Sequence record: OR842557 | Direction: 5' to 3' (one strand) | DNA from: Escherichia phage 04086 | DNA length: 64,000 bases | In this document: positions 1,549 through 2,859 of the stretch, one piece after another | Layout: each line of letters opens with the position of its first letter | How positions within the stretch are numbered: position 1 is the stretch's first letter | Notes under the pieces: model-generated | Seen by the model: the letters and a program-made list of their open reading frames with translations, nothing else | Databases searched by the model: none | What the model was told of the DNA's origin: nothing | Position numbers and translations under genes: made by a program

Positions 1549-2859
1549 AACAATACCAATTTTTAATTAAAGATATCCTGGAAAACGGCTACGAAACTGA
1601 CGACCGCACAGGCACCGGTACAATTGCACTGTTCGGTACTAAATTGCGTTTTGATTTAACTAAAGGCTTCCCAGCAGTAACAACTAAAAAATTAGCATGG
1701 AAAGCCTGTATTGCTGAGCTTCTTTGGTTCCTTTCGGGTTCAACCAACGTTAATGACCTGCGTCATCGTACTCACGGTTCACGAACTGAAGGCAAAACTA
1801 TTTGGGACGAGAATTATGAAAATCAAGCAGTTGATTTGGGATATTCTGATGGCGAACTGGGTCCTGTATACGGGAAACAATGGCGAGATTTTGGTGGTAT
1901 CGACCAGGTTGTAGAGATTGTCGAACGCATTAAGAAAATGCCTAATGACCGTCGTCAAATCGTATCAGCATGGAACCCTGCCGAACTAAAACAGATGGCC
2001 TTACCACCGTGCCATTGTTTTTACCAGTTCAACGTTCGTAATGGTCATTTAGACCTCCAATGGTATCAGCGTTCTGTTGACGTGTTCTTAGGATTGCCAT
2101 TTAATATCGCCTCTTACGCCGCTCTTGTGCATATTGTAGCTAAGATGTGTAATCTTATTCCTGGCGATTTAGTGTTCTCNAAATCGTATCAGCATGGAAC
2201 CCGGCAGAAATTAATAAGATGGCTCTTCCTCCATGCCACTGTTTTTATCAGTTCAACGTTCGTAATGGTCATCTTGACCTCCAGTGGTACCAACGTTCTG
2301 TTGACGTGTTCTTAGGATTGCCATTTAATATCGCCTCTTACGCCGCTCTTGTGCATATTGTAGCTAAGATGTGTAATCTTATTCCTGGCGATTTAGTGTT
2401 CTCNGTCAAATCGTATCAGCATGGAACCCTGCCGAACTAAAACAGATGGCCTTACCACCGTGCCATTGTTTTTACCAGTTCAACGTTCGTAATGGTCATT
2501 TAGACCTCCAATGGTATCAGCGTTCTGTTGACGTGTTCTTAGGATTGCCATTTAATATCGCCTCTTACGCCGCTCTTGTGCATATTGTAGCTAAGATGTG
2601 TAATCTTATTCCTGGCGATTTAGTGTTCTCAGGCGGCAATACACACATCTATTCTAACCACGTTGAACAATGCCAGGAAGTTCTTCGTCGTGAACCTAAA
2701 GATCTGTGTGAACTGGAAATACGGTATTGGCATAAAGATTTCCATGAATGGACAACAGAACAACAGTTGGCTTGGGTTACCGGAATGATGTATCCTGAAG
2801 ATTTCGTCCTTAAAGGTTACGAATCGCACCCTACTATTAAGGCTAAAATGGCTGTATGA
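1545..2859 (+). CDS. td: Thymidylate synthase; frame broken by inserted duplicate copies joined at n 2180 and n 2404; no intron
   Basis: N-terminal [31 protein letters not shown] and C-terminal [25 protein letters not shown] match T4 Td; start overlaps frd stop (ATGA). Confidence 0.85.
1954..2630. repeat. Three near-identical direct copies of a ~225-bp td segment separated by n (2180, 2404); middle copy is a divergent allele
   Basis: Copies readable directly; middle copy translates to [24 protein letters not shown].. versus ..ELKQMALPP.. in flanking copies. Confidence 0.9.

Follow-up and report, generated by a model that had tools for sequence, protein, structure and literature searches.

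Results

The stretch of DNA analyzed here (the window) comprises 64,000 nt of the Escherichia phage 04086 record OR842557. Its gene order is conserved, running from frd and td through baseplate, head and tail genes to gp10 and the 3' end of gp9. A megablast search of the GenBank phages placed the window in the genus Dhakavirus, among the JS98-like T4-type coliphages, at identities of 92-98%; the same search found no identical record among the GenBank phages, the best matches reaching 96-98%. We used five Dhakavirus genomes as references (IME281, LQ5, ABTNLS3, C6 and IME341), with 84-99% identity to the window. Within the window there are 15 Ns, grouped into 13 runs (12 of a single N and one NNN), and these runs divide it into 14 segments of 223 to 13,042 nt. 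The runs lie at positions 2180, 2404, 4777, 9683, 10463, 14283, 26326, 26561, 32375-32377, 34162, 39026, 52069 and 52349, matching exactly the positions at which the first-pass annotation of this DNA had described the sequence as restarting upstream.

At each of the 13 junctions, the 113-226 nt before the N recur right after it with 87-100% identity, and at all 13 the two copies abut the N directly: the last base of copy A is at N-1 and the first base of copy B at N+1. After each N, the sequence goes back by 169-238 nt; the annotation had given about 170-230 bp. Three loci carry a triple arrangement: td (1954-2630), the third alt paralogue (26123-26798) and gp18 (51882-52554). In each, a divergent mini-segment of 223, 234 or 279 nt (hereafter mini-contig) lies in the middle with an N on either side, and the flanking large contigs overlap each other at 100% identity (226 nt in td, 203 nt in alt and 113 nt in gp18). 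The N runs at 2404, 26561 and 52349 are the right-hand joins of these triples; at the other ten junctions, none of which comes after a mini-contig, the repeat is ungapped, 168-226 nt long and 86.6-100% identical. A tandem-repeat scan of the window at every period from 100 to 300 nt (≥85% identity) returned 13 pairs, all 13 of them at N junctions. Self-BLAST of the window revealed no further direct repeat of ≥100 nt with >90% identity; what remained were the alt paralogues, which are ∼70% identical, and two short repeats of 55-77 nt. The association between N runs and repeats is thus exclusive and far beyond chance.

At the td triple, the left copy (1954-2179) is followed by N 2180, a mini-contig of 223 nt (2181-2403), N 2404 and the right copy (2405-2630). 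The outer copies are identical at 226 of 226 positions and carry the allele of PSD9 and ABTNLS3 (100%, 226/226), whereas the middle copy differs from them at 18 sites, 14 of which are third codon positions, and has 3 mismatches to LQ5. The divergence that had been claimed for the middle copy at the protein level is borne out: it encodes AEINKM, compared with AELKQM in the outer copies (L>I, K>N, Q>K). At N 2404 the best register is shifted by two bases, because the right contig begins 3 nt before the mini-contig.

The triple in the third alt paralogue consists of a left copy (26123-26325), N 26326, a mini-contig of 234 nt (26327-26560), N 26561 and a right copy (26562-26798). Here the outer copies 26123-26325 and 26562-26764 are identical at 203 of 203 positions; the first 200 nt of the mini-contig show 0 mismatches to both ABTNLS3 and IME281, and the left copy shows 3 mismatches to C6. 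In the tail-sheath gene gp18, the left copy (51882-52068) is followed by N 52069, a mini-contig of 279 nt (52070-52348), N 52349 and the right copy (52350-52554). The outer copies are identical over 113 nt (51956-52068 and 52350-52462), and the mini-contig differs from the left and right flanks at 25 and 17 sites, respectively, nearly all of them synonymous. This mini-contig is 100% identical to QL01 and 99.6% identical to LQ5, while the gp18 flanks are nearest to C6.

The simple joins contain two copies each. In nrdA, 4609-4776 is repeated after N 4777 as 4778-4945 (168-nt overlap, 97.6% identity), with 4 differences, all in the first 28 nt of the right contig. The join that covers alc and the start of pseT.3 (9477-9682, N 9683, 9684-9889; 206 nt, 98.5%) shows 3 differences, all synonymous and within the first 34 nt; that in pseT.2, an Rz1-like spanin gene (10291-10462, N 10463, 10464-10635; 172 nt, 97.7%), shows 4 differences within the first 37 nt. 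In cd, the gene for dCMP deaminase (14057-14282, N 14283, 14284-14509; 226 nt, 97.8%), there are 5 differences, all synonymous third-position changes in the first 41 nt; LQ5 has 0 mismatches to the left copy, and the bases of IME281 and ABTNLS3 are present in the right copy at 4 of the 5 differing sites. The uvsW/inh join (38807-39025, N 39026, 39027-39245; 219 nt, 98.2%) spans the 5' end of uvsW, the intergenic spacer and the 5' end of inh; its 4 differences all fall among the first 16 nt, at intervals divisible by 3, and the right copy equals ABTNLS3 with 0 mismatches. The overlap in gp27 (33972-34161, N 34162, 34163-34352; 190 nt) is 94.2% identical. Its 11 differences consist solely of transitions, and 10 are both synonymous and at third positions; ABTNLS3 is close to the left copy, with 2 mismatches, and every reference shows 10-13 mismatches to the right copy. 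Finally, the join in gp29, which is encoded on the minus strand (32178-32374, NNN 32375-32377, 32378-32574), has a 197-nt overlap with identical copies (197/197, 100%), so that no polymorphism is visible inside the overlap to explain the break. It is the sole join with NNN and the sole simple join with 100% identical copies.

To compare the genes with and without the repeats, we collapsed the window by dropping the three mini-segments and trimming the overlaps, which removed 2,671 nt and left 61,329 nt. The repeat period is not a multiple of 3 at 10 of the 13 junctions and, before collapse, td, nrdA, pseT.2, cd, alt, gp29, gp27 and gp18 are each broken into two to three ORF pieces. In nrdA, for example, the period of 169 nt causes a frameshift that leaves open frames of 506 and 309 codons. 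After collapse, td, nrdA, alc, pseT.3, pseT.2, cd, alt, gp29, gp27, uvsW, inh and gp18 (12 of 12) are full-length and collinear with IME281, and the 12 proteins align with their IME281 orthologues from first to last residue at 89-100% identity. Thus nrdA becomes a 751-aa collinear match, the split alt a full match of 707 aa, and gp18, in three pieces in the window, a full match of 660 aa; the two pieces of pseT.2 give the full 96 aa, the split cd gives 181 aa, the 558- and 102-codon frames of gp29 give 578 aa, and the split gp27 gives a full 389-aa match. The first-pass annotation had stated that every affected gene regains a full-length frame when the extra copy is removed. This holds for all 12 genes, but two of its cases were not frame disruptions to begin with. 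The alc repeat, with a period of 207 nt, is an in-frame repeat of 69 codons without frameshift, giving an open frame of 239 codons (a 235-aa ORF) compared with 166 aa in IME281, and collapse brings it back to 166 aa. Both uvsW and inh are intact before as well as after collapse; they are unbroken in the uncollapsed sequence because the join duplicates their divergent 5' ends and the spacer between them.

None of the five references carries a second copy at any of the 13 junctions (65 of 65 tests), and on each reference the contig ends overlap by exactly the duplicated length, again in 65 of 65 cases. When mapped to IME281 at td, for instance, the first large segment ends at 2489, the mini-segment covers 2267-2489, and the next large segment starts at 2264. 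In the whole phage collection, the td unit occurs at 432 places in 430 phage records and the gp18 mini-contig at 42 places in 42 records. Exact searches of wider collections gave no hit for a 48-nt pattern across N 2180 (viral contigs), for a 46-mer of the td mini-contig (viral, metagenome and genome contigs) or for the fibritin protein of the window. The 14 pieces are perfectly collinear with the references in order and orientation.

These comparisons bear directly on whether the duplications could be physically real in the phage DNA, with each N an ambiguous base call at a novel joint. T4-type phages can form tandem duplications by illegitimate recombination, which is what such a reading has in its favor. 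However, it would need 13 independent events, each with its joint exactly on an N, and the simultaneous disruption of eight genes, namely gp18, gp27, gp29, nrdA, td, cd, alt and pseT.2. In T4, gp18, gp27 and gp29 are essential; a genome with frameshifts in the tail sheath gene and two baseplate hub genes at the same time would not be viable. Furthermore, in the triples the two outer copies agree at 100% and the one between them has the allele of another isolate, the differences follow the codon phase of the original gene even though the majority of extra copies would be read out of frame, and the duplications are absent from every sequenced relative compared. We therefore rejected genuine gene-internal tandem duplication, to which we attach a practically negligible probability.

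To analyze the differences between copies more quantitatively, we compared the paired copies base by base. There are 95 differences, 88 of them in an assignable reading frame; 78 of these 88 fall at codon position 3, and 77 are synonymous. Because the gp18 middle-versus-right comparison partly re-counts the left-versus-middle comparison, we also left it out, which gives 62 of 71 at position 3 (a count from the listing of differences); the binomial tail of 8e-19 was computed for 60 of 71. The differences keep the original codon phase even where the extra copy lies out of frame. Both bases are found among the five references at 76 of the 95 sites, and there are 0 sites at which neither base is found. 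Single copies match different sequenced phages at 99-100%, and the mini-segments are exact or near matches to other isolates (QL01, LQ5 and ABTNLS3). The differences are thus allelic in character: they are natural alleles, not noise. Since the copies match different isolates and their differences are allelic, at least two related Dhakavirus genotypes contributed reads and, in all likelihood, were co-assembled.

A purely error-driven origin would dispense with a second genotype: contig ends from a clonal stock would have stayed under-collapsed (homotype duplication) when sequencing errors blocked their merging. Contig ends are indeed error-prone (PMC5368935; PMC8081667), the gp29 join has copies with 100% identity, and at several others no more than 3-5 differing sites are present, near the contig end. 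But errors would favor neither third positions (78/88) nor synonymous changes (77), they would not coincide with the bases of sequenced isolates (both bases at 76/95 sites, neither at 0), and the mini-contigs are exact alleles of other phages. We consider an origin from errors in a clonal stock very improbable.

The distribution of the differences within the overlaps is uneven. At six joins (nrdA, alc, pseT.2, cd, uvsW/inh and the left join of alt), no difference occurs beyond the first 42 nt of the right contig; from there on, the two contigs agree completely over the remaining 135-203 nt of the left contig. A branch point in an assembly graph would be expected to confine differences to the beginning of the right contig in this way.

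Several known kinds of repeat and insertion were also compared with the observed units. A CRISPR array has repeats of ∼25-50 nt separated by unique spacers of comparable size, whereas the units here are 113-279 nt long, intragenic, adjacent without spacer and present in only two or three copies. The template and variable repeats of a diversity-generating retroelement would show substitutions confined to template adenines; the substitutions observed are of mixed type, with no restriction to adenines (T>C 17, C>T 13, A>G 13, A>T 10, G>A 9, and others). For a group I intron or homing-endonuclease insertion in the td and nrd genes, the insert would not be expected to be a copy of the adjoining exon, as it is here, and the intron reading also fails in that td and nrdA, once collapsed, align collinearly with the IME281 genes, which are uninterrupted. 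The caution in the first-pass annotation, that the repeats should not be read as introns, CRISPR-like arrays or real tandem duplications, is therefore sound: they are copies of the adjoining sequence without spacers, their joints occur only at N, and the relatives are single-copy.

We also computed the identity of the collapsed sequence to the five references in a 500-nt sliding window. The best-matching reference switches every 0.5-3 kb across the window, and identity ranges from 0 to 100%. The region at ∼500-1000 matches all five references poorly, and the wac/gp12/gp10 end is matched well by C6 and IME341 only. Mosaicism is normal for T4-like phages. The mosaicism of the whole window may, on sequence grounds, be either this typical T4-like mosaicism or a chimeric consensus of mixed genotypes. 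Because the best match changes throughout the window, haplotype switching at the joins is inseparable from ordinary T4-like mosaicism.

Discussion

We have shown above that 13 repeats are flanked by N, that the relatives are single-copy at every junction, and that the interrupted genes are restored on collapse. The 13 repeats are almost certainly false tandem duplications, produced when overlapping contigs were left unmerged in a mixed-genotype assembly of a Dhakavirus phage. The earlier suggestion that overlapping fragments from a mixed population or related strains were concatenated is well supported, in that the copies correspond to natural alleles of different isolates, the relatives carry a single copy, and the overlaps collapse cleanly.

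The following sequence of events would account for the arrangement. The window would consist of 14 scaffolded contigs of a JS98-like T4-type coliphage, assembled from reads of at least two close genotypes. Clusters of synonymous SNPs between the genotypes would have left the assembler unable to thread one path, and contigs would have broken where the genotypes pass from a polymorphic cluster into common sequence. At such a break, one contig would keep allele A and overshoot by 135-203 nt (about one read length) into the common sequence, and the following contig would begin on allele B. Three leftover read-sized contigs (223-279 nt) would carry the minority allele. The scaffolder would then have placed the contigs in the right order, left their overlaps undetected and unmerged, and inserted a minimal placeholder N (once NNN), with an outcome of 13 false tandem duplications totaling 2,671 nt. 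The overlap sizes of 113-237 nt together with the mini-contigs of 223-279 nt point to a read length of roughly 220-280 nt; this value, the type of assembler and scaffolder, and the coexistence of the genotypes in one sample are what we infer. The gp29 join, with 197 nt at 100% identity, counts against a polymorphism-driven break at that position.

The breaks at boundaries of polymorphism clusters could also be imagined to have a biological cause, with some repeats physically present in a subpopulation as recombination duplications between co-infecting Dhakavirus genotypes. If this were true, the scaffold would record real heteroduplex or duplication intermediates rather than software behavior, but we give this idea almost no credence.

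A different route to the same kind of artifact deserves somewhat more weight, although we still consider it unlikely. Fragments from separately sequenced related isolates may have been concatenated with N, or contigs gathered from several samples may have been ordered by reference and joined in this way. Consistent with this, individual copies equal different isolates at 100% (ABTNLS3/PSD9, QL01 and IME281), the best reference varies along the scaffold, and the 14 pieces follow the references perfectly in order and orientation. On the other hand, the mini-contigs of 223-279 nt and the narrow, read-like range of overlaps (113-237 nt) fit leftovers of a single assembly better, and mosaicism is also found within contigs. 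With concatenated isolates as with unmerged contigs of one mixed assembly, the repeats would still be an artifact.

False assembly duplication at contig boundaries is already a known kind of artifact, and the repeats are not biology. Assemblies of mixed cultures and metagenomes suffer from fragmentation by strain heterogeneity, in which they break where related genomes go from diverged to identical. The joins resemble this in that, at six of them, the differences cease no more than 42 nt into the right contig and give way to identity. In contrast to the usual assemblies of this type, which are left as separate contigs, the pieces here were scaffolded into one record with their overlaps untrimmed.

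The joins also resemble the heterotype and homotype false duplications described by Rhie et al. (2021, Nature, PMC8081667), which arise at contig boundaries, are about one read length in size and become gapped tandem duplications on scaffolding. As in those cases, divergent contigs are kept in series, the overlaps are of a size compatible with a read length, and a gap lies between the copies. The repeats of the window carry haplotype-specific natural variants, the hallmark of the heterotype class. They differ from the published cases in that the haplotypes are those of co-occurring phage genotypes, not the parental chromosomes of a diploid, and in that their scale is 113-279 nt compared with kb to Mb, with a gap of a single N.

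The single N between copies has a likely parallel in scaffolding practice as well. For a gap estimated as zero or negative, and in the absence of an exact overlap, programs like SSPACE and ABySS put a single n between the contigs. Unlike such negative-gap joins, one join here carries NNN; at this join, in gp29, the scaffolder's gap estimate was apparently +3 instead of zero or negative. Our search of the literature for the single-N convention yielded only an indirect statement on negative gap sizes, in a description of ALLPATHS-LG according to which scaffolders register overlapping neighbor contigs as negative gap sizes (PMC5368935).

The practical consequences concern annotation. Taken at face value, the record leads to nine wrong gene models, with td, nrdA, pseT.2, cd, alt, gp29, gp27 and gp18 split or frameshifted and alc expanded, and its 2.7 kb of spurious sequence are open to misreading as introns, repeats, gene duplications or pseudogenization. 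False duplications have been noted as liable to be misread as exon or gene duplication (PMC8081667). The collapsed sequence of 61,329 nt is an ordinary Dhakavirus genome segment. The repeats themselves are of negligible biological interest, and their use is as a quality-control flag for annotation. They also reveal at least two related Dhakavirus genotypes in the sequenced material; given such a mixture, the consensus between the joins may be chimeric and hence unfit for fine-scale recombination or strain analyses.

Additional features of the window

Besides the N-flanked repeats, the window contains three tandem alt (ADP-ribosyltransferase) paralogues at ∼21800-28500, with ∼70% identical DNA. 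Three alt paralogues are annotated in ABTNLS3 and C6, and two in IME281 and IME341. Unlike the N-flanked repeats, the alt triplet is a genuine paralogue expansion.

Two ORFs point to variable gene content. Between denA and rnlA (region ∼6900-7990), a 224-aa ORF on the plus strand (7309-7983) is without a Pfam match. IME281 contains the DNA of this ORF at 98-99% identity and LQ5, ABTNLS3, C6 and IME341 lack it; the locus is therefore a variable accessory gene slot. A 223-aa ORF on the plus strand (43790-44461) lies between gp24 (42137-43417) and gp23 (44521-46080), both on the minus strand, with a 93-aa ORF (43505-43786) upstream of it. It shows a weak match to a GIY-YIG SegE-like Pfam family (22.7 bits, under the cut-off of 25), and among the five references its DNA is matched in IME341 only (∼86-88%), where it is annotated as a homing endonuclease. 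Judging by these matches, it is probably a mobile insertion of a seg-type endonuclease.

Two short direct repeats adjoin no N. The first (16851-16905 and 17257-17311; 55 nt, 92.7% identity) is duplicated in IME281 too. The second (18197-18273 and 18419-18495; 77 nt, 78%) seems to reflect neighboring small 30.4-like paralogous ORFs. Both pairs, within 16851-17311 and 18197-18495, are probably real repeated intergenic or paralogue sequences.
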